From: Escherichia coli O157 typing phage 9
Sequence record: KP869107
Length of the DNA stretch: 43,991 nucleotides
Strand: one strand, 5' to 3'
Below the pieces are notes generated by a model that saw nothing but the letters and a program-made list of their open reading frames with translations, ran no database searches and was not told the origin of the DNA. This document shows, one piece after another, positions 1 through 43,991 of this stretch (position 1 is the first letter of the stretch; every line of letters starts with the position of its first letter). A program made the position numbers and the translations under genes.

Positions 1-270
1 ACAAATTTGCCTAATTGCCCTGGCCCACCAAGAGGAACAAAGTTATTCATCACGGCGTTGTTTGCGCCGGGGTCATGATGCACAGAATCCCCGTTTTTTG
101 TCCTGCTCTCCCTCTCTTGGTTAAATGACTGGTTATATGACTGGTTCTGGATCCCGTTTTTGGGATCATTCAACATCCCGTTTTTGGGATCATTCAACAT
201 CCCGTTTTTGGGTATATTCCCGTTTTCGGTAACATTACCGTTTTCGGGTTCATTGACCCCCTCTCGGTTG
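1..270. repeat. Direct repeat, copy 1 (matches 39093-39374 except one 12-bp unit)
   Basis: Read directly: acaaatttgcctaattgccctggcc... recurs at 39093; copy 1 has 2 units of atgactggtt(a/c)t, copy 2 has 3. Confidence 0.95.
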
Positions 271-5799: not shown

Positions 5800-7050
5800 T
5801 TATTCCCCCGCCATCCACTTCTCAAACTTCGACGGGGAGAACGGAATCAGATCCGTATGCTCCCCGTTAATCCAGGAATCAATCATATCGGACCACTGCT
5901 GCAACATGTAGGCGCGCTGTCTGGCGTATTCCGCTTTGTTATATACGGCGCGCACACCTTTCTGCTCATGTGCCAGAGCCTTTTCAATCCAGTCTGAAGG
6001 ATAACCAGCCTCATGCAACAACGTACTGGCTGTACGGCGCATATCGTGTACGGTGAAGCCCTGAATATGCTCACCATCTTCATTTATTATTTTCACCGTT
6101 CTGTCGATCAGAGAGTTCAGCGCGGCATTAGATAATGGCTTCCGGAAATTGTAACGACCAGGAACCAGATATTCACTTCCACCAGCGCACATCTGCAACC
6201 CGACCAATATATCCTGAGCCTGTTTAGGCAGGTAAATAACGTGCGCCCGGCTTCCCTTCATGCGGTCTGAAGGAATTGTCCATGTCCATTTTTTAAAATC
6301 TATTTCATCCCACGTTGCGTTGGTGAATTCGCCTTTACGAACCATAGTGATAAGCACCAGCTTTAAAGCCATTTTCATAGTGCCCATAGCACCAATGGCA
6401 TCCAGCGTGCGGAAGAACAGGCCAATTTCTTCTGGTGTCAGTGTTCGCTCTCGTGGTTTAAATATGGCGATAGACGAAGGTTTAATGTCAGCCGCAGGAT
6501 TAAACAAACCATGACCACGGTCATTGGCGTGACGGTATACGCTGCTGATGATCTCCCTGGCCTGCACTGCTGTTGCCCGACCACCGCGTTCGACAATCCT
6601 GTCACACAAATCACGAACCATCGATGTGGTAATTTCAGCCATCATTTTGTTGCCAAGAACCGGAAGTATGTCACGGTCGATCACTGCCTGCTTCATTGCG
6701 CGGGTACTTTCAGCCAGGATGACGTGTTTCATATAACTGTCGGTATGTACCGCAAACGTCTCGGCACCACGAATCTTTTTGATACCGTCACGTTTAGCCG
6801 CAGCCGGTGACTGGCCTGCTTTAAGCAGCTTCTTTGCAGCAATCAGTTCTTCTCGCGCTTCTGCCAGGCTGATACCGTCACGCCCATACTGCCCGATTAC
6901 CAGTGTTTCGCGGCGACCGTTGATACGGTAGTCATAGCGAAACGAGACCGTACCTGACGTAAGCACAGCTACATACAGCCCGTCACGATCGGAAACTTTG
7001 TACAGTTTGTCCTGTGGCTTGAGGTTTTTTAATTTTGTATCGGTAAGCAC
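5800..7050 (-). CDS. int: Tyrosine-type site-specific integrase (P4-like family)
   Basis: 416 aa; N-term LTDTKLKNLKP; C-terminal catalytic region HDMRRTASTLLHEAGY...AHEQKGVRAVYNKAEY; GTG start. Confidence 0.85.
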   Translation of the reverse strand: MLTDTKLKNLKPQDKLYKVSDRDGLYVAVLTSGTVSFRYDYRINGRRETLVIGQYGRDGISLAEAREELIAAKKLLKAGQSPAAAKRDGIKKIRGAETFAVHTDSYMKHVILAESTRAMKQAVIDRDILPVLGNKMMAEITTSMVRDLCDRIVERGGRATAVQAREIISSVYRHANDRGHGLFNPAADIKPSSIAIFKPRERTLTPEEIGLFFRTLDAIGAMGTMKMALKLVLITMVRKGEFTNATWDEIDFKKWTWTIPSDRMKGSRAHVIYLPKQAQDILVGLQMCAGGSEYLVPGRYNFRKPLSNAALNSLIDRTVKIINEDGEHIQGFTVHDMRRTASTLLHEAGYPSDWIEKALAHEQKGVRAVYNKAEYARQRAYMLQQWSDMIDSWINGEHTDLIPFSPSKFEKWMAGE

Positions 7051-7092: not shown

Positions 7093-7339
7093 ATACCTTT
7101 AAGGTAATACCGTCACCTGTACCGCCGAAAAATATGGTGTAGAGTGAATAGAAATGAATACATAAAAACAAAAACCCTCTGTAAAAACAGAGGGTTAAAT
7201 TAGTATCTGAATAGGAATGAGTTGCTATGAGTTAGCTGTTAATCATTCCCACTCAATTATTTACGGCAACCATAACCAATTGAGTGATAACATTTTTCCA
7301 AAACTTCATTTTTTTAGTACCGTTTTATATACCGTCACC
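7093..7339. promoter_or_regulatory. Candidate attP / integrase control region
   Basis: Noncoding stretch upstream of int with direct repeats taccgtcacc (7108-7117 and 7330-7339), 9-bp inverted repeat cactcaatt/aattgagtg (7250-7286), and a TTACC-type site at 7093-7107. Confidence 0.3.
7165..7196 (-). terminator. Rho-independent terminator after the lysis cassette
   Basis: Hairpin aaccctctg-taaaaa-cagagggtt with T-rich tract on the minus strand. Confidence 0.5.
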
Positions 7340-28430: not shown

Positions 28431-28723
28431 TCCTGTTCACTGGCCTCTTTGGCCATCTTCAAATACTGTTCAGGGCAATGCGCCATAACGCGCTGAAACA
28501 GTTCCAGCGCCAGATTGCGTTGCCCCTCATTAAATGCCATTGCCATAGCGTCCATCGGCGAGATAGCGGAAAACACACGGCCTTTCTCCAGTACCGACCA
28601 GACAACCCGACGCCCCTGTTCACAGCTCATGACAAAGCGAATGTCATCAATTTCACGCTGTGCCATGTCACGTTGCTTACGGGCGTTTTCTTCTTTCAGT
28701 TGATCGTCTTCGTAATCTGTCAT
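28427..28723 (-). CDS. Hypothetical small protein after portal
   Basis: 98 aa ORF coupled to portal. Confidence 0.4.
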   Translation of the reverse strand: MTDYEDDQLKEENARKQRDMAQREIDDIRFVMSCEQGRRVVWSVLEKGRVFSAISPMDAMAMAFNEGQRNLALELFQRVMAHCPEQYLKMAKEASEQE

Positions 28724-30399
28724 TGTGATTGCCCACCCTGACCACTAACTGCATTCGCCATAGCTGACAAAACACTCGGATCCGAAGTTTTAGCTTCGCT
28801 TAGCGTCTTGACCCCCTGTGCCGCCGCCATCCCCATCGCCATCATTTGTTGCTGCTGTTGCTGCTGTGCCCGTTGCTGGCGAGCCTGCTCAACCTGTTCC
28901 TGCGGAACAATGACGGTTGGAGACACTCCGGACATATCAGCGAATGCATCGATCGCCTGATCAACGTTGAGTTTGTCGAGAGCTTCTGGTTTCACTTGCG
29001 CAAGTTGACCAATGAAGTTGACCGTAGACGCCAGACTGGACAGGCCGATAGACTTCTGCGCCTGAGCCATGACGGAAATGTATTCGACCTTCAGGGGCAT
29101 ACCTTCCATCACGTCTGGCGGTGGCGGCAGCATGTTTTTACGCACCATCATCGAGAAAGAGCGATCAATGAGAGGATTAAGACATTCGTCGTTCAGGCGC
29201 TCCAGAACCGGCCCCAACATCAGAAGTTTTTCTTCTTTCATTTCGATCACCGCTTCAACAGGCATTGAGCGGGTATTGATGTTCTGCAACATCATGAACA
29301 GATCGACAAAGTAGGCGCTGTTAATGATTTGACGAGTGTCCTGAATGTCTGCTACCAAATCTGCTGTACTGGGGTTAACCAGATAAGCAGGCCTGAAGCC
29401 ATCCTGACCAGTAATCTGATCGATATACGTGATGTCGCCAGGAAGAAGGGAGGCGCGCTGATTCTTGAGGGAAGTCGGAGCAACCATCGGCGGATTGGTG
29501 GCTTTATCAATCAACTGCGACTTGCGCTTCTGGAGAAGCTGCAATGCCTTAACAGGTCCAAGCGCCAGCATACCCGGGCATGATGATCCATAAACATCTT
29601 CGCCATTAACTTCCCAGCGCGGAGCCATAATTGGAAACTCATCGAATCCGGACTCACGCAACAACTTGTCGTTATCGCCACCAACCTCGTAATAAACCGA
29701 TTTGAATGGCTTGTTCTTGCTATCCAGCTTCGATGTATCGCGGTCAATGTTCGGGTAAACCGAATGCATCACTTCAATCCACTTCTCGTAGGTGCCGCTT
29801 TCCCACATGCTTTTTACGGATTCGCTGACGTTATTTAGTCCGAACTCCTGAACAAGCTGACGAACAGTCATAGAGAACTTGCGAAAACAGGTGTCCACAC
29901 TGCCACGAGGTGAGTTAGCCAGGTAGTAACTGCCTATCGGGAATGGCATTGTACGAATGATGTCCTCGTCATCATCCAGCACCGCCATTGCGCCAGTGCT
30001 GTATGTGCCGAGGCTTCCGTATAACTGCGGCAGCGACTGATAGAGATTCGACTTATTGAACATATCGTTCATGCGGTTCTGCACCGCCTCAAGCCACAAC
30101 TTAACAGGGCCATAATCCATCATTTCAGGATCTGGCGTAGCCAGGCGAAACCACGGACGCGCGGGGCTTGTGATGCCTGACATCATGCCGCTGGCGAGAG
30201 TGCGCGCCGCCATAGTCCCGGTCGAATCAATAATGCGTGTATTGCGTCGATCGTTACGGTTGACCTCAGAAGTCAGAAAGCGGGAACCACGCGGGTTGAT
30301 GTAATCACTCAACTCGCGCCAGTGCGGCTCGAACGACTGACGCTCGCTTTCAAGTTGTGCGAACTGTTTGTTCAATCGCTCTTTAGTTGTTTCCGCCAT
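28720..30399 (-). CDS. Portal (head-tail connector) protein, T7 gp8-like
   Basis: 559 aa; ATG with GGAG RBS; Gln/Ala-rich C-terminus (QQRAQQQQQQQMMAMGMAAAQG) characteristic of gp8-type portals. Confidence 0.75.
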   Translation of the reverse strand: MAETTKERLNKQFAQLESERQSFEPHWRELSDYINPRGSRFLTSEVNRNDRRNTRIIDSTGTMAARTLASGMMSGITSPARPWFRLATPDPEMMDYGPVKLWLEAVQNRMNDMFNKSNLYQSLPQLYGSLGTYSTGAMAVLDDDEDIIRTMPFPIGSYYLANSPRGSVDTCFRKFSMTVRQLVQEFGLNNVSESVKSMWESGTYEKWIEVMHSVYPNIDRDTSKLDSKNKPFKSVYYEVGGDNDKLLRESGFDEFPIMAPRWEVNGEDVYGSSCPGMLALGPVKALQLLQKRKSQLIDKATNPPMVAPTSLKNQRASLLPGDITYIDQITGQDGFRPAYLVNPSTADLVADIQDTRQIINSAYFVDLFMMLQNINTRSMPVEAVIEMKEEKLLMLGPVLERLNDECLNPLIDRSFSMMVRKNMLPPPPDVMEGMPLKVEYISVMAQAQKSIGLSSLASTVNFIGQLAQVKPEALDKLNVDQAIDAFADMSGVSPTVIVPQEQVEQARQQRAQQQQQQQMMAMGMAAAQGVKTLSEAKTSDPSVLSAMANAVSGQGGQSQ

Positions 30400-31789: not shown

Positions 31790-33265
31790 TTAAGCATAGG
31801 GATCGTAATCTGTAATGGCCTTGCCTTGCTGGTTCTGCTGCCCGGGAATTCGCAGACGCTTAGACACAGGGAACGCAAACGTCAGCAGTAGCGCATCGCC
31901 TTTACCCGGCGAACGCCCAAGCCGCTCCTTGATATCTTCCTTCGGTTCGATAACGATTTTACCGTCCACTCGAACTTTGTACTCTGCCGTCGACAGGTCG
32001 TCCGCTGTTTCCTGGTCATCCAGCATCCCGCCCAGCCTCAGCCATGTCTTGCATGAGTTGAACATCTCCCCACGCTTGTTGAGCATCTGCGGGTCAGTAG
32101 ACGCGCCACCGAACGGAACAAGTTGCCATGTACGACCCCAGCCGTCACCGATTGACTTCAGACCAGTTCCGTAACCGAAGTCGATGAACACTGCGTCAGC
32201 CTGGTACTGGTCTTCAAAGTCAGCGATACGCTTCGCCATAATCAGATCGTCAGTGGTCTTGTTGCCAGTCCACAGCACCTTACTGTGCAGCCCCTGCCGC
32301 AGGTATATCACAGCGTCATCAACGCCGGAGTATGCCGGGTCAACGCCGATTATCACCGGAGCATGTGCAACCTGCGCAGCGGTTACCACCCGTTTCATTG
32401 CCTCGTCAGTAAGGCCGGTAGGGATAAACTGCAATTCAGATGCATCCGGGAATATGCCGCGCACACGGATTTTAACGAAGTCGCTGCCTTCCCCGTAGTC
32501 ATCAACCCATTTCTGCAACTGCTGTTTGTTAGTGCCTTCCACCGTCCGGCTGTCAATCTGCGCAGTTTTCCAGCGGTGTTTATATTTGCGGAAACATTCG
32601 CGGAAACGCCCGGTGTTACGTGTAGGGTTTCCGAATGCCACCCAGATAATCTCAGTGTCTTCGTCCGTCAGCGCACCCTCTGCTACCTCCCACACCAGAT
32701 CGGCAATGTTGGATGCTTCGTCGAATACCACGATGATGCGTTTGCGCTCGTTGTGTAGTCCGGCGAATGCCTCAGTGTTGTGCTCAGACCAGGGGATTGC
32801 GTCAGCTCGCCACCGCTTGTCGTGCCCAGGGTCATTGCTGTACATCGCGGTAGCGGTACAGGTAAACCAGTCTTTCGTGATAGCAAGGTTCGACCACTTG
32901 ATAATTTCCGGCCAGGTCTTCGTTCGTAGCTGGTTGTCGGTGTTGGCGGTCACCACGACCTTACAATCCTCGCAAGTGGACATGCCCCAGTTGATCAGCA
33001 TTGAGATGAATGCGGATTTACCAATACCGTGACCCGAAGCGCGTGCCAGCATAAGCGGCTGATAGCGCGTCTCTGGATTCTGCAGGTGATCACGTATCTC
33101 TCGGAACGCATCAGCCTGCCACTGACGTGGACCGGTGGCATGTGCTAATTCAGTCCCCTCTTCCCCCCACGGGAACGCATAGAGGGCATAGCCAAGCGGA
33201 TCGTGAGTGAACCCTGCAATATCCTCGATCAACTGCTCTTCAGGAGATAACGCTGTATCTGTCAC
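31790..33265 (-). CDS. terL: Terminase large subunit
   Basis: 491 aa; Walker A-like ARASGHGIGKSAF; classic ATPase plus nuclease two-domain length; GTG start overlapping the TerS stop. Confidence 0.85.
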   Translation of the reverse strand: MTDTALSPEEQLIEDIAGFTHDPLGYALYAFPWGEEGTELAHATGPRQWQADAFREIRDHLQNPETRYQPLMLARASGHGIGKSAFISMLINWGMSTCEDCKVVVTANTDNQLRTKTWPEIIKWSNLAITKDWFTCTATAMYSNDPGHDKRWRADAIPWSEHNTEAFAGLHNERKRIIVVFDEASNIADLVWEVAEGALTDEDTEIIWVAFGNPTRNTGRFRECFRKYKHRWKTAQIDSRTVEGTNKQQLQKWVDDYGEGSDFVKIRVRGIFPDASELQFIPTGLTDEAMKRVVTAAQVAHAPVIIGVDPAYSGVDDAVIYLRQGLHSKVLWTGNKTTDDLIMAKRIADFEDQYQADAVFIDFGYGTGLKSIGDGWGRTWQLVPFGGASTDPQMLNKRGEMFNSCKTWLRLGGMLDDQETADDLSTAEYKVRVDGKIVIEPKEDIKERLGRSPGKGDALLLTFAFPVSKRLRIPGQQNQQGKAITDYDPYA

Positions 33266-38048: not shown

Positions 38049-38849
38049 TTACTTGATAAATCCTGCTGCCTTTCCTCGCCTGTATTCCTCCATCAGCCAC
38101 TGCGCCGGTGTTATTCCCCCCAGGGTGGCGGCGTTAGGCATGCACCCGAAACTTCGCCCTGGTGGATGGTAAACATCTCTCCCTGTGTCCGGAGGCGTAC
38201 TCATGGGTTCTGGCTTTGCCTGTATGCTGATCACCGGATCGGGTATCTGCTGTCCGGAAGCCACCTTTTTCGCCCAATCATCGAGCAGCCTGCGCGCGTG
38301 TTTCTCAACCTCAATCTCGCTAAGCTGGCGCTGATACATTGCACGGCGGGTATCACATACGACCCAGTACATAACCGGATGCCGCCACGGGAATCTTTCG
38401 GGACCACCAGGATATAAACTTTTTTCCTTGCTGTACCGGTGAAACTCCGCCATCACATCGTCAATGGTGACGCCAAGAACCATCTTGCTGTCTTTACACC
38501 ACTTGATGAATTGCCCTGGCGACGGCCAGAACGGAGACTCACTGGCGCGGGCGTGGCGCATACCAGCAGAAACCTGTTCACGGGTTCGGATCCCCCCTTC
38601 GGCAAACGCAGCAATCCACTGCTGTTTTGCAGCAACTTCCTGCTCTGGCGTCTTCAGGTTGGTTACCACTGCCGCCGGAAACAGTTGTTTCAGCTGTTTG
38701 AAAAGGGCATCAACAAGCCTCTCTGCTGACATGTTCACCACGTTGTCATTGTTGGTGTACTGATGCTCATAACCTGACATGCGAGAAAGGGCTTCTCCGT
38801 CACGGTTTTGTATCGCGGTAAAAACGTTGTTCACAAGAAATCCTCCCAT
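38049..38849 (-). CDS. Replication protein P-like (helicase loader)
   Basis: 266 aa; segment GIRTREQVSAGMRHARASESPFWPSPGQFIKWCKD aligns by eye with lambda P (GITTMEQVNAGMRVARRQNRPFLPSPGQFVAWCRE). Confidence 0.7.
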   Translation of the reverse strand: MGGFLVNNVFTAIQNRDGEALSRMSGYEHQYTNNDNVVNMSAERLVDALFKQLKQLFPAAVVTNLKTPEQEVAAKQQWIAAFAEGGIRTREQVSAGMRHARASESPFWPSPGQFIKWCKDSKMVLGVTIDDVMAEFHRYSKEKSLYPGGPERFPWRHPVMYWVVCDTRRAMYQRQLSEIEVEKHARRLLDDWAKKVASGQQIPDPVISIQAKPEPMSTPPDTGRDVYHPPGRSFGCMPNAATLGGITPAQWLMEEYRRGKAAGFIK

Positions 38850-39374
38850 GCTTCAGGGCTGTTCCAGTGCGGAACGTTGTTATCAGGTAATGTTGATTGC
38901 TTCTGTCTGCTAATCTGCAGCCGCCTTGCCAGCTTCTGCTCCCACTGTGCCTGATGGTATGCCTTACCCTCAGCCATCCAGTAAATTCTGAACTCTGCAA
39001 GTTCCTGTGCCGTTGGCAGACTGTCCAGGTAGATCCCCTGCAATGAGCTTTTCCGAAGAAAGTCATCTGATGGCTGCCATTGTTCATGCATGACAAATTT
39101 GCCTAATTGCCCTGGCCCACCAAGAGGAACAAAGTTATTCATCACGGCGTTGTTTGCGCCGGGGTCATGATGCACAGAATCCCCGTTTTTTGTCCTGCTC
39201 TCCCTCTCTTGGTTAAATGACTGGTTATATGACTGGTTATATGACTGGTTCTGGATCCCGTTTTTGGGATCATTCAACATCCCGTTTTTGGGATCATTCA
39301 ACATCCCGTTTTTGGGTATATTCCCGTTTTCGGTAACATTACCGTTTTCGGGTTCATTGACCCCCTCTCGGTTG
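38831..39374 (-). CDS. Replication initiator O-like, C-terminal part plus iteron-encoded linker; N-terminus lost in the N run
   Basis: Minus-strand frame open from the N run through the iterons (MLNDPKNG repeats, NQSY repeats) to a stop at 38831; overlaps the P-like start. Confidence 0.6.
39093..39374. repeat. Direct repeat, copy 2 (truncated by N run at 39375)
   Basis: Identical to 1-270 apart from an extra 12-bp tandem unit at 39229-39240. Confidence 0.95.
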
Positions 39375-39474
39375 NNNNNNNNNNNNNNNNNNNNNNNNNN
39401 NNNNNNNNNNNNNNNNNNNNNNNNNNNNNNNNNNNNNNNNNNNNNNNNNNNNNNNNNNNNNNNNNNNNNNNNNN
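39375..39474. other. Run of 100 N (unresolved or masked sequence) at the junction between the two phage modules
   Basis: Read directly. Confidence 1.
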
Positions 39475-40077
39475 CACGGCATTCATCGCATCAAGAACCG
39501 GTGATAAATCCTCACCACCATTACCTTCTGCCTGCTGTGCTGATTGCTGAACACGGGACTGGAGATAGTTATTTTTACGGATGAGCGAAGCCACCGCGTC
39601 ACCAATTTCCGGATACATCTCCCTGATACGGGCAATCTGCTCATCAGAAATTTTTTCGTTTTCCGGTAACGGTGTGGGCTTCATACCGGCCTGGTGGATC
39701 TGAGACGTCAGCAGTTCCACCCTGCGTTTTTCTTCAGCTATCTGCCCACGAAGAAGTGCGGCTTCCTGTTCGGCCCGTTGCTTACCGGAACGTTCAGCCT
39801 CAAGGACTTCATAGGGAATGACGTGTTTACCGTCGCGGGTGAGCACCCCCTTCGCTTCCGGCTCCTTCACGTCCTGCGTCTGCTCCACACTGGCATCCGG
39901 CGTCGGTGCCACATTGTTATCGCCCGTCTGAGTCTGTGCTTCCTCATCCGCATGTTTTTCCGTGGTATCTTCCGTCACGACGTCCTGTGCGTGACTGTCA
40001 ATATCCACATCCCCAAGTCCTTCCAGCATTTTTTCCAGTTGTTCCGGGGTTTCTTCACCCGTAAATTCAAAATCCAT
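39475..40077 (-). CDS. Putative scaffolding-like protein of a P22-type head module, 3' end lost in the N run
   Basis: Acidic N-terminus and coiled-coil-like middle; located downstream of the portal as the scaffold gene is in P22-like phages. Confidence 0.35.
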
Positions 40078-40186
40078 AAATAACTCCGCATGGTCTGTTT
40101 ATCGGACAGATCCGAATGGTTGAGTAAATAAGGCTTATCGCTGCCCCCGCGAATAAGCGCACCGCTCCCGGAACGCTTACCTCCGG

Positions 40187-40216
40187 AAACAAAAAACCCC
40201 GTACGATGACGGGGTT
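40187..40216 (-). terminator. Rho-independent terminator after the P22-type portal gene
   Basis: aacccc-gtacgatgac-ggggtt with T6 on the minus strand. Confidence 0.45.
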
Positions 40217-40235
40217 CAGTTGAAGCCAGAGTTTT

Positions 40236-42336
40236 CAGAGCGACATTTCATTCATCCGCTGTTGTAACGTATACAGCATCTGTTGCTGAAGAACGTCCTG
40301 CTCCTGTTCCATATTCTGTACGCCGGTAATGATTTCTGCCGTATGTGCCTGGTTAAGCGCATNNNNNNNNNNNNNNNNNNNNNNNNNNNNNNNNNNNNNN
40401 NNNNNNNNNNNNNNNNNNNNNNNNNNNNNNNNNNNNNNNNNNNNNNNNNNNNNNNNNNNNNNNNNNNNNNNNNNNNNNNNNNNNNNNNNNNNNNNNNNNN
40501 NNNNNNNNNNNNNNNNNNNNNNNNNNNNNNNNNNNCTGCCTGTTGTTGCTGAAGTGCCTGTTGTTGTGCCGCTACTTCCTGTTCTTCCGGCGTCATTTCA
40601 TCCGGTGATTTTGGCGTCCCCAGCGCAGCACGAATACGCTCAACAAACTCCTGTTTCTGCGGCACATCCAGAAGATTAACCCACAGGTCGAGCACAACAG
40701 CCTGCACCTGAGGCGGCAGCCCCTGAATAACCTCTGACATTCTCTGTGCAAGCTGTGCCTTAAACGCCGGTGTCTGCTGAACAGGCGCCAGCGCAATATG
40801 TGTATTTAACCTTGAAATATCATTGGTCAGTTCACCATTATCACCTTCAGCATTGAGGACAATGGTCTGGCGACGCTGGCGATCATCGCGATTAATCACC
40901 ACTGCATGATTACGGCGTTTTTTCAGGTCATCGAGAAGATAAGCCAGCAACAGTCTTCCCACCTGCTGGCAGGCAAACTGGTAGTTATCGTTGATTTCCG
41001 CAAGGGTTGTGGCCCCCTGCTCCACCAGGTTACTGATAGCCACGCCTGACGTCGCACCTGAATCCTGCCCGAGAAATGCGGAATACACTCCNNNNNNNNN
41101 NNNNNNNNNNNNNNNNNNNNNNNNNNNNNNNNNNNNNNNNNNNNNNNNNNNNNNNNNNNNNNNNNNNNNNNNNNNNNNNNNNNNNNNNNNNNNNNNNNNN
41201 NNNNNNNNNNNNNNNNNNNNNNNNNNNNNNCTGCATGACCTGAAACTGCTGGCTGGCAACCTGAAAATCCTGCTCAACCCGAAAAACATCTGCGACACTT
41301 TTCTGATTTTTTCGGACCGGATTCAGTTTAATAATGCCATCCGGACGTTCGATCTGCTCCATCAGGTCGTTGTCTGACAACTGGGTGGCATCCTCGTCCA
41401 TAATCACGCGTTTGGCCTGAAGCAACCAGGTCAGCTTGATACGACGAAAATTCACCTCATCCTGTGCCGGAATGGCGCGGGAAATTAGCCCGTATGGCTC
41501 CCCGGTTTTATCCTTTCGGTATCCCCAGAAAGGAACCAGCGGAAACATCCCCTGCGGAGCACTACAGGGGCGATCCACAATAAAGTGTGGCCCGACAAAC
41601 CAGGCTTCACGAATACGGCTTACCCGCCCGACTTTCACCTGAACCCGCCCGGATGCCACAGCTACCGCCTGCATCAGATTATTTTTATCAAAGGCCACCA
41701 CCCGTCCATTACTGAGTTCAATCACCGGAAGACGCTCGAATGTACGGTAATAAACCACCTGAAGCAGCACACGACGGCGTTCACGCTGAAGCCATTCGTT
41801 CTGCTGTCGATCCCATGACTGATACTCTTCCCATGCACTCATCAACGGACTGGGCTGGCCTTCAGTAACCGTGGTATCGACAAAACCACGCCAGTCATCA
41901 ATGGCATAATCGATAACCTGAGCCATTCCCGGGAATGTAGCTTTTGCCTCATCGGTATCCATCCAGCGGCGACGCATCAGCCATCGGCAGTCACTTAAAT
42001 CAGCCTCCCGGCTCAGCCAGTCCCAGAAAACCTCATTCCGGCTGACAGTAGACACCTTAAATTCAGGCCCGAACGGATCGCTGTTTCGTCTGACCTCCAC
42101 CCAACTGAGGCCCGCCTTGATTTGTTCCGCATAGGCATCAGAGCGGGCTTTATTCATATTGCCAAGGCGGCATGCATCGGCAAATTCAGCATTAATAGCT
42201 TCAGCCAGTTTTTCAGTTTCATCATCTGGCTCGTCTGACATCACCACCAGATCAGTCCGTGTTTTGGCCTCCATTCCCAGAACGCCATCGACGGTAGGCG
42301 CGATGAGGTTATGGATAGTCATCGGCTGACCGCGAT
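40236..42336 (-). CDS. Portal protein, P22-type, interrupted by N runs (5' end inside the N run at 42337-42558)
   Basis: Long portal-sized reading frame with a Gln-rich C-terminal helical region (QEVAAQQQALQQQQA); true C-terminal frame ...QQRMNEMSL ends at 40236. Confidence 0.55.
40363..40535. other. Run of 173 N inside the portal gene
   Basis: Read directly. Confidence 1.
41092..41230. other. Run of 139 N inside the portal gene
   Basis: Read directly. Confidence 1.
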
Positions 42337-42558
42337 NNNNNNNNNNNNNNNNNNNNNNNNNNNNNNNNNNNNNNNNNNNNNNNNNNNNNNNNNNNNNNNN
42401 NNNNNNNNNNNNNNNNNNNNNNNNNNNNNNNNNNNNNNNNNNNNNNNNNNNNNNNNNNNNNNNNNNNNNNNNNNNNNNNNNNNNNNNNNNNNNNNNNNNN
42501 NNNNNNNNNNNNNNNNNNNNNNNNNNNNNNNNNNNNNNNNNNNNNNNNNNNNNNNNNN
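42337..42558. other. Run of 222 N spanning the terminase/portal gene junction
   Basis: Read directly. Confidence 1.
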
Positions 42559-43991
42559 GAGCCATCCAGTGTGTGGTTCTGCGTTTATCCGTTTTCTGTT
42601 TTACCCTCACCGGCATTCTGGCGCGCATCTCCTGGGCAATCATGTAGCTCATGAGCTGATCATCAAAGCAGCCTTCCTGTGCATTCATGGAGCCTTTCGC
42701 GTCATAAACGTAGGTGTTCATTTCCGATAATGTGCCTGACCAGCGGATCCCTGATATTCCATTATTCAGAAGCGTTTTCATTCCTTCGGTCAGAACAGGT
42801 TTGCTCTGACGGGTTGTCAGCCAGCCAAGGCGGGGCGTATCGTCGTCATATGCCTGGTCAAGATGCTGTTCGTTGTAGATATAACGTGTCGGATAGAGTT
42901 CCCGGAGTTTCAGGATAACTGCATGTCCGTGATTATTACGCTCCGGCCCCACAAACGCGTTGTTATACATACGACAGACCTGCGAAATGAGATGAGCAAA
43001 AAGTTCAGCATCGAGATGCCCGAACCAGTGAGCCACCTGCTCGCCATTACTGCGTTTGACAACATCCAGCGATGAGCGGTCTCCGTGCTCCAGCCCTTCG
43101 GCAGTATCTGCCCCANNNNNNNNNNNNNNNNNNNNNNNNNNNNNNNNNNNNNNNNNNNNNNNNNNNNNNNNNNNNNNNNNNNNNNNNNNNNNNNNNNNNN
43201 NNNNNNNNNNNNNNNNNNNNNNNNNNNNNNNNNNNNNNNNNNNNNNNNNNNNNNNNNNNNNNNNNNNNNNNNNNNNNNNNNNNNNNNNNNNNNNNNNNNN
43301 NNNNNNNNNNNNNNNNNNNNNNNNNNNNNNNNNNNNNNNNNNNNNNNNNNNNNNNNNTGTTCATCAGTAAGCGTGATGTTCATTGCCTTCTCAACCGCAG
43401 AAAAATACGTCATTTTTTCCCGTGACAGCTTCAGCCCGCTTTCCGGCACTCTGGCGCTGTATTTAGGATCCTGCCACCAGGCGTAAAAATGGAATTTATA
43501 ATCCTGTGCCGTCAGCAATAAGCCTGATGCAGTGATCTCCTGTGCTCGGTTACTCATCTCGTAAAAATCACCACCCACGCCTTCAGCAGTGGACTCATCA
43601 AAAATAATGCATTCATCAGAGACGGCATTAAGCGTACCGGTTCGCAGTTCTTTCGCCTTAGCCGGATATTTCGCGCAAATTTTGCCGTGCTCTGAGATAT
43701 GCAGGCGCTGCACCGTACCTGAACGGAATGAGGTTGCCACCTGGATACTCGAGCCGTGACCAAACAGGATATAGCCACCGCTGGCACCGCTACGACGTTC
43801 AACGATGGTGAATGAGGCTCTCAGCCAGTCAGGGAGATGATCAAACGGTACAGCAATTTTTGTGCGGAAAATTTCACTGGCAGCCTGTTTATCCTGAGCG
43901 ACGATCCCGCATTTGAGATGCGGAATGAATAATGCCTGGTCGAGAAGATAAATATCAATGGCTGTGGAAAATCCCAGCTGGCGCGCTTTCA
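42559..43991 (-). CDS. Terminase large subunit, P22-type; N-terminus beyond the window end, interrupted by an N run
   Basis: Minus-strand frame from the window end: ...ILFGHGSSIQVATSFRSGTVQRLHISEHGKICAKYPAKAKELRTGTLNAVSDECIIFDESTAEG...; after the gap ...VAHWFGHLDAELF...DDQLMSYMIAQEMRARMP (nuclease-domain-like). Confidence 0.55.
43116..43357. other. Run of 242 N inside the terminase gene
   Basis: Read directly. Confidence 1.

Follow-up and report, generated by a model that had tools for sequence, protein, structure and literature searches.

Record KP869107 of Escherichia coli O157 typing phage 9: a phiV10-type genome very probably concatenated with a gapped scaffold from a Stx-converting phage

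The record deposited for Escherichia coli O157 typing phage 9 (KP869107) is, in all likelihood, a concatenation of two unrelated assembly products: the genome of a phiV10-type phage and a scaffold from a contaminating Stx-converting phage. The window considered here is the whole stretch of DNA in this record, 43,991 nucleotides in length. A sequence-only reading had suggested that the coding content switches to a different phage lineage at a run of 100 Ns towards the right end, and such a change does occur at this point: positions 125–39358 correspond to typing phage 10 (Uetakevirus), whereas positions 39475–43991 correspond to 933W/VT2-Sakai (Sepvirinae/Traversvirus). There is no biological novelty in the record; both sequences were already known, at 100% identity.

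The left part: a complete phiV10-type genome

The left part of the window contains a complete phage genome that is identical to that of typing phage 10 at 39234/39234 bases, as confirmed by exact string comparison. This genome encodes both terminase subunits, small and large, as well as a portal and a capsid protein of its own, and the packaging genes ascribed to it by the sequence-only reading were found in place, with the portal gene at 28720–30399 and the large terminase gene at 31790–33265. The features of this part are the following:

1–270: terminal overlap, left copy, duplicating 39093–39374 and also matching the end of the typing phage 10 record
125–39358: complete phiV10-type (Uetakevirus) genome, identical to O157 typing phage 10 (KP869108)
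38831–39304, minus strand: C-terminal 157 codons of a DnaT-like replication gene, cut by linearisation of the circular genome
39093–39374: terminal overlap, right copy, where the phiV10-type contig truly ends

The two copies of the terminal overlap are identical at 270 of 282 positions, and their single difference is one 12-bp gap, the 12-bp unit being present in two copies in the left overlap and three in the right. Iteron-like tandem arrays are found in the right copy, with units of 12 bp (3.4 copies), 24 bp (2.6 copies) and 18 bp (3.1 copies). As positions 1–270 repeat positions 39093–39374, the phiV10-type contig closes on itself, and the sequence to the left of the 100-N spacer carries on at window position 271, not into the Stx segment. 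The truncated DnaT-like product has been deposited as 'primosomal protein 1' for both typing phage 9 (AKE46440.1) and typing phage 10 (AKE46491.1). The TT12B prophage has an intact DnaT-like gene of 834 bp, which runs uninterrupted through the point at which the contig ends. An att core lies near 7241–7257, in the middle of the window, and both ends of the window consist of phage sequence.

The right segment: 933W-type DNA

Five blocks of sequence, of 888, 556, 1106, 557 and 634 bp, lie beyond the 100-N run, and each of them matches Stx2 phage 933W/Sp5 at 100% identity and in collinear order. All 3,741 determined bases of 39475–43991 are 100% identical to AF125520 and AP000363 (933W and VT2-Sakai), and the same 4,397-bp span is found in the top matches listed from among 192 phage and 425 genome records. 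Identical segments are present in Stx1 and Stx2 phages alike. The segment had been proposed to come from another lineage than positions 1–39092; the 100% match to 933W supports this proposal. Judged by sequence identity, the true lineage of the right segment is that of a 933W-like Stx-converting phage. The features of this part, including the spacer that precedes it, are the following:

39375–39474: 100-N spacer, very probably an artificial join of two unrelated assembly pieces
39475–40077, minus strand: L0115 (hypothetical protein), N-terminal 201 of 335 codons, C-terminal part missing (locus 3001–3603 of L001)
40235–42336, minus strand: portal L0114, visible residues 65–432, 443–627 and 674–714 (coordinates from block mapping)
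40363–40535: scaffold gap 1, 173 N in place of 135 bp of 933W sequence, inside the portal gene
41092–41230: scaffold gap 2, 139 N in place of 30 bp, inside the portal gene
42337–42558: scaffold gap 3, 222 N in place of 194 bp, hiding the terminase stop and the portal start
42559–43991, minus strand: large terminase L0113, visible residues 73–282 and 383–567 (phrog_2, terminase large subunit)
43116–43357: scaffold gap 4, 242 N in place of 297 bp, inside the terminase gene

The three genes thus listed, in the order L0115, portal and large terminase, were correctly placed on the minus strand by the earlier reading, as mapping onto 933W showed, and none of them is complete. Residues 1–64, 433–442 and 628–673 of the portal protein are lost to gaps, and the record ends before the N-terminal 72 residues of the large terminase are reached. 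In 933W, L0115 is encoded between the portal gene and the major capsid gene. An exact protein look-up with the ORFs of this appendix, four spanning Ns and six free of them, gave no match in the collection, with the sole exception of an antisense ORF of 129 aa. This antisense ORF has been deposited for many Stx phages, under no AKE accession.

The segment had been described as a P22-type packaging and head module. This description holds for the portal only, at the level of the Pfam family (P22_portal, PF16510, E = 1.4e-128), and does not extend to the terminase, to L0115 or to the module as a whole. Even for the portal, direct comparison with P22 gp1 revealed only a weak similarity (23% identity over 252 aa, E = 0.007). 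No significant similarity was obtained in a comparison of the large terminase with P22 gp2 (best E = 0.014, over 71 aa); the nearest solved relative of this protein is T4 gp17 (1.6e-7), and there are no P22 or Sf6 terminase chains among its solved-structure matches. The term 'scaffold-like' had a positional basis alone, as L0115 has no Pfam hit, belongs to a family of unknown function (phrog_479) and displays no similarity to P22 gp8. A BLAST search for P22-like phages had been put forward as a check, and there were none among the organism groups listed for 192 megablast matches.

The N runs and the sequence they replace

A scan of the whole window found five N runs, all of them exactly where they had been reported, and no further N elsewhere. 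The inner runs interrupt genes, as had also been claimed, with two in the portal gene, one over the terminase stop and portal start and one in the terminase gene. Gap sizes had been expected to be informative when set against the sequence missing from homologues; the N lengths do not match the sequence missing relative to 933W, from which they depart by +38, +109, +28 and −55 bp, respectively. As the inner runs differ in length from the sequence they replace, they are estimated-size scaffolding gaps rather than masks. The idea that the Ns are deliberate masks, with which a database or the data providers hid a real, uninterrupted sequence, is consequently very improbable. The round length of the 100-N run would suit it, but masking preserves length, and the four inner runs are of the wrong length between flanks that follow 933W collinearly and at 100% identity, whereas the 100-N run divides two sequences that cannot be contiguous.

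The length of gap 3 happens to bring the portal and terminase genes into one frame, creating a spurious ORF of 668 aa (41030–43036). The GC content of the missing pieces (0.40–0.61, versus 0.49–0.53 for the blocks) is unremarkable at such short lengths, and a check for repeats at the gaps found the 933W segment to be single-copy in most of the genomes with matches. Low coverage is the simplest cause of the gaps.

The junction

The junction query had no place covering at least 80% of it in any of the 201 matching phage records, or in any of 5,426 complete E. coli genomes. This absence, the self-closure of the left contig and the truncated or gapped state of all three genes on the right support the suggestion that the record contains a scaffold join, and also the suggestion that it is not a functional chimera. 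That the record represents a real hybrid phage, into which part of a packaging module of the 933W type has been incorporated, is barely credible. Lambdoid and other temperate phages are indeed mosaic, and the window was deposited as one record, but the phiV10-type genome is already complete, closing at 39,092 or 39,104 bp, its DnaT-like replication gene would be interrupted by the appendix, and no such join was found in any related record searched. Moreover, the appendix has no function as a second packaging module: its three genes are incomplete, and it contains no small terminase, capsid or tail gene.

The sequence-only reading had also raised the possibility of a neighbouring second prophage. 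The two parts would then be adjacent prophages in a draft bacterial chromosome, with N runs that are ordinary scaffold gaps; E. coli O157:H7 genomes are known to carry both elements as prophages, and draft genomes typically contain gaps whose size has been estimated. This explanation is nevertheless highly unlikely. The record was deposited as a typing phage, from a phage lysate, and has no bacterial flanks; the left unit is self-closing, and its permutation point is the DnaT-like gene rather than attP. In the complete genome of TT12B, yfgI and guaA border the same prophage, which has no Stx phage as a neighbour, and the two sequences occur within about 1.4 kb of each other in none of the 5,426 complete genomes (0/5,426).

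Proposed origin of the record

If KP869107 is a concatenation of two assembly products, the first piece (1–39374) would be the complete contig of the typing phage, with a real length of 39,092 or 39,104 bp; the circularity or terminal redundancy of the genome would account for the overlap of about 270 bp between the contig ends. In the second piece (39475–43991), five short contigs from a Stx-converting phage of the 933W type would have been scaffolded from paired-end reads at low coverage, with the four inner N runs giving the gap sizes estimated by the assembler; the 100 Ns would be a conventional spacer, physically meaningless. The typing-phage genomes were obtained by paired-end Illumina sequencing and Velvet assembly, with 1–7 contigs per phage, and those of typing phages 9 and 10 were given as '40-45000 bp' (PMC4429339). 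Scaffolding and concatenation are not mentioned in that paper, in which the word 'scaffold' occurs 0 times.

The most likely source of the Stx DNA in the appendix is a prophage carried by the STEC O157 strain in which the typing phage was grown; induction of this prophage during growth would have led to its DNA being extracted along with that of the typing phage. The strain used to propagate phage 9 was STEC O157 PT2 (PMC4429339). Only 4.5 kb of a Stx phage of about 61 kb is present in the record, and contamination by an induced prophage fits this amount only if coverage was very low or if other contigs were discarded.

The same artefact might instead have arisen from reads of bulk host chromosomal DNA, or from cross-contamination by a STEC library on the same run, rather than from an encapsidated induced prophage, although this is rather unlikely. 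Host carry-over or cross-sample contamination would yield the same picture, and the laboratories involved sequence many STEC isolates. The locus tags of typing phage 10 begin at ECTP10_01613, implying more than 1,600 other annotated features, so the assembly of that phage must once have held much non-phage sequence that was later trimmed. However, bulk carry-over would not be expected to leave just the packaging region of a prophage, and for phage 15 the authors stated explicitly that temperate phages were induced by propagation and that their DNA was co-extracted (PMC4429339).

Consequences for typing phages 9 and 10

Typing phages 9 and 10 have been said to differ by three genes, a possible cause of their differing host reactions (PMC4429339); a gene list for these two phages is absent from the supplement of that paper. 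As their phiV10-type genomes are identical over 39,234 bp, a three-gene difference cannot lie within the phage genome itself, and the published difference most probably reflects the appendix or differences in annotation. Tentatively, the typing phage 9 stock could be a mixed lysate, in which the phiV10-type phage is accompanied by a 933W-type Stx phage, in encapsidated form, that had been induced in the PT2 strain used for propagation. If this were so, assembly would have succeeded only for the region immediately following the small-terminase gene, where headful packaging would give the highest coverage. The six phage types lysed by typing phage 9 but not by the sequence-identical typing phage 10 would then be attributable to this second phage, or to host-controlled modification, rather than to the 'three extra genes' that have been published. 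Reference typing lysates would also be carrying a toxin-converting phage.

The record is otherwise best regarded as an ordinary artefact, the value of which lies in curation. A public single-phage record appears to carry some 4.6 kb of foreign sequence from a Stx phage, interrupted by gaps, together with a duplicated end of about 270 bp, and these inflate the length of the genome from 39.1 to 44.0 kb. In automated surveys, its content can seed false calls of a 'chimeric phage', of 'two terminases' or of a 'Stx-phage-related Uetakevirus'.

Comparison with known systems

The left genome is 100% identical over 18,977 bp to that of phiV10, an epsilon15-like phage, and the length of the phiV10 genome (39,104 bp) matches its closed length of 39,092 or 39,104 bp. 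Unlike phiV10 and typing phage 10, the typing phage 9 record retains the terminal overlap of about 270 bp and the foreign appendix of 4.6 kb. The right segment has L0113 to L0115 in the same order and on the same strand as 933W/VT2-Sakai (Sp5; Sepvirinae, Traversvirus), but it is only an internal fragment of 4.4 kb, with both ends cut within genes and four unsequenced gaps, and it lacks the stx, small terminase, capsid and tail genes of 933W. The P22 module (gp3-gp2-gp1-gp8-gp5) shares with the 933W type the order small terminase, large terminase, portal, unassigned gene and capsid, the unassigned 933W gene (L0115) occupying the position of the P22 scaffolding gene; the 933W-type capsid, in contrast to that of P22, belongs to the Phage_capsid_3 family. 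Concatenated or scaffolded draft assemblies likewise join unlinked pieces with 100 Ns and place approximate N runs between contigs of 550–1,100 bp, whereas KP869107 is presented as a single phage genome.

A phiV10-type genome with an untrimmed overlap

The part of the window to the left of the 100-N run (1-39374) is a phiV10-type, epsilon15-like Uetakevirus; positions 125-39358 match the typing phage 10 record (KP869108) at 39,234 of 39,234 positions. It encodes its own small terminase and, as a first reading made without database searches (the sequence-only reading) had recognized, its own large terminase and portal.

Features of the phiV10-type part
5800-7050, minus strand: integrase
28720-30399: portal
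31790-33265: large terminase
38831-39304, minus strand: 157-aa DnaT fragment, deposited as 'primosomal protein 1' (AKE46440.1, typing phage 9; AKE46491.1, typing phage 10)
39210-39358 (also 121-254): three tandem arrays next to one another (12 bp x3.4, 24 bp x2.6, 18 bp x3.1)

Window 1-270 duplicates 39093-39374, the sole difference being one 12-bp unit (ATGACTGGTTAT), present in two versus three copies, so the contig is self-closing, with a length of 39,092 or 39,104 bp. Either the copy number varies within the stock or the repeat was mis-assembled; with three copies, the closed length equals that of phiV10 (39,104 bp). A terminal overlap of about 270 bp was left untrimmed in KP869107. In the complete O157:H7 genome TT12B, the element is integrated as a prophage, with yfgI and guaA on its two sides, and reads uninterrupted across the end-to-start junction of the window, inside an intact 834-bp DnaT-like gene. 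This read-through and the self-overlap indicate that the true continuation after 39374 is window 271 onward rather than the sequence beyond the N run. The 157-aa 'primosomal protein 1' is a fragment made, in both typing-phage records, by linearizing the genome within this gene; intact prophage homologues have 271-277 aa. The probable attP core is at about 7241-7257, beside the integrase gene, where 17 bp are shared by the two alignments between the window and the TT12B prophage.

The three tandem arrays share the core CCCGTTTT(T/C)GGG and are located within the DnaT-like replication gene, where they look like origin iterons embedded in an initiator gene, the arrangement seen in lambda O. The contig break coincides with this cluster of iteron-like repeats, and tandem-repeat clusters are common break points of short-read assemblies.

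A 933W-type fragment beyond the N run

The coding content does switch phage lineage at the 100-N run, as had been proposed. A comparison of the segment beyond it (39475-43991, here the appendix) with P22-like phages had been suggested. In a megablast search it matched 192 records of phages and 425 E. coli replicons; the top hits, at 100% identity, include Stx2 phage 933W (AF125520), VT2-Sakai (Sp5) and numerous further Stx1- or Stx2-converting phages. It aligns with 933W in five blocks (888, 556, 1106, 557 and 634 bp) with zero mismatches and in the same order and orientation, and its lineage is that of a 933W-like Stx-converting phage. None of its three genes is complete, and the small terminase, capsid and tail genes flanking them in 933W are absent from the appendix.

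Genes of 933W in the appendix (all minus strand)
L0115, hypothetical: only residues 1-201 of 335 kept
L0114, portal: lacks residues 1-64, 433-442 and 628-673
L0113, large terminase: residues 1-72 (beyond the window end) and 283-382 missing, as are the final residue and the stop codon

Antisense to L0115 runs a probably spurious 129-aa ORF (39694-40083, plus strand), which numerous Stx-phage and STEC records list as a hypothetical protein (e.g. Stx1_p005). Its cluster includes a 109-aa protein labelled Xanthomonas hyacinthi; this member is on a 356-bp contig and looks like contamination in that assembly. The terminase-portal-L0115 region is broken by ISEc8 (IS66 family) in the complete O157 genomes of CEC03102 and related strains, and by IS1203 (IS3 family) in those of EC4115, TW14359 and SS17. 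Packaging by the Stx prophages so interrupted is presumably defective.

Gap lengths and the junction

A scan of the whole window found ambiguous bases in five N runs and none elsewhere, with the coordinates and lengths already reported for them.

N runs in the window
39375-39474: 100 N, joining the phiV10-type part to the appendix
40363-40535, gap 1: 173 N versus 135 bp in 933W (difference +38)
41092-41230, gap 2: 139 N versus 30 bp (+109)
42337-42558, gap 3: 222 N versus 194 bp (+28)
43116-43357, gap 4: 242 N versus 297 bp (-55)

Deliberate masking had been one option, but a mask keeps length, and in none of gaps 1-4 does the N count agree with the missing 933W sequence. Paired-end insert-size estimates would not keep it, so gaps 1-4 are estimated-size scaffolding gaps separating short contigs, a pattern that suggests low coverage. 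A 668-aa ORF (41030-43036, minus strand), in which the terminase C-terminus is fused to the portal, is spurious: the wrong length of the 222-N run restores the frame by chance, whereas the other N runs shift it. It could mislead gene callers that read through N runs.

Both halves of a query spanning the join (38575-40362) were covered at one place in none of 201 matching phage records and none of 5,426 complete E. coli genomes. Together with the yfgI/guaA flanks in TT12B, this gives no support to a neighbouring second prophage. The self-closing left contig, the incomplete appendix genes and the absence of the junction from these records and genomes bear out the proposal of a scaffold join; neither a functional second packaging module nor a chimeric phage is present in KP869107.

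Source of the appendix and comparison of typing phages 9 and 10

The typing phages were assembled with Velvet from paired-end Illumina reads, giving 1-7 contigs per phage; typing phage 9 (accession KP869107) was propagated on STEC O157 of phage type PT2, and phages 9 and 10 were described as having '40-45000 bp genomes' (PMC4429339). For phage 15, the paper states that temperate phages were induced by propagation and their DNA co-extracted (PMC4429339). The record is best explained as a concatenation of a complete phiV10-type contig with its untrimmed overlap, 100 N and a low-coverage 933W-type Stx-phage scaffold. The Stx DNA most likely derived from a prophage of the propagating strain, which would have been induced while the lysate was produced; host chromosomal carry-over or run cross-contamination is a less likely source. 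Locus tags in KP869108 run from ECTP10_01613 to 01663, so the typing phage 10 assembly held much extra sequence that was trimmed before deposition; its more than 1,600 other features indicate heavy non-phage DNA in that lysate also.

According to the abstract of the source paper, phages 9 and 10 differ by just three genes, present in phage 9 and proposed as a possible cause of differing host reactions (PMC4429339). All sequence differences between the two records are confined to the terminal overlap or the appendix, and a tailspike protein is deposited in both (AKE46407.1 and AKE46458.1). Since the phage genomes are identical, the published difference is most probably a matter of the appendix contaminant or of annotation; consecutive accession numbers suggest just one deposited CDS (AKE46441) after DnaT in KP869107. 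The appendix is an artefact of the public record and its biological interest is low; its practical value lies in database hygiene and in the interpretation of the typing-phage paper (PMC4429339).

Relationship to P22

The label 'P22-type' given to the appendix by the sequence-only reading holds in part. The large terminase L0113 has no Pfam match and no significant similarity to P22 gp2, its closest solved structure by sequence being T4 gp17. L0115 has no Pfam match and no similarity to P22 gp8 or any solved structure, and its PHROG family is of unknown function; 'scaffold-like' was a guess from its position before a Phage_capsid_3 capsid gene. The portal L0114 matches Pfam P22_portal (E = 1.4e-128), with just 23% identity to P22 gp1 over 252 residues. 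The label stands only for the portal family; in their order, the packaging and head genes of 933W resemble those of P22.
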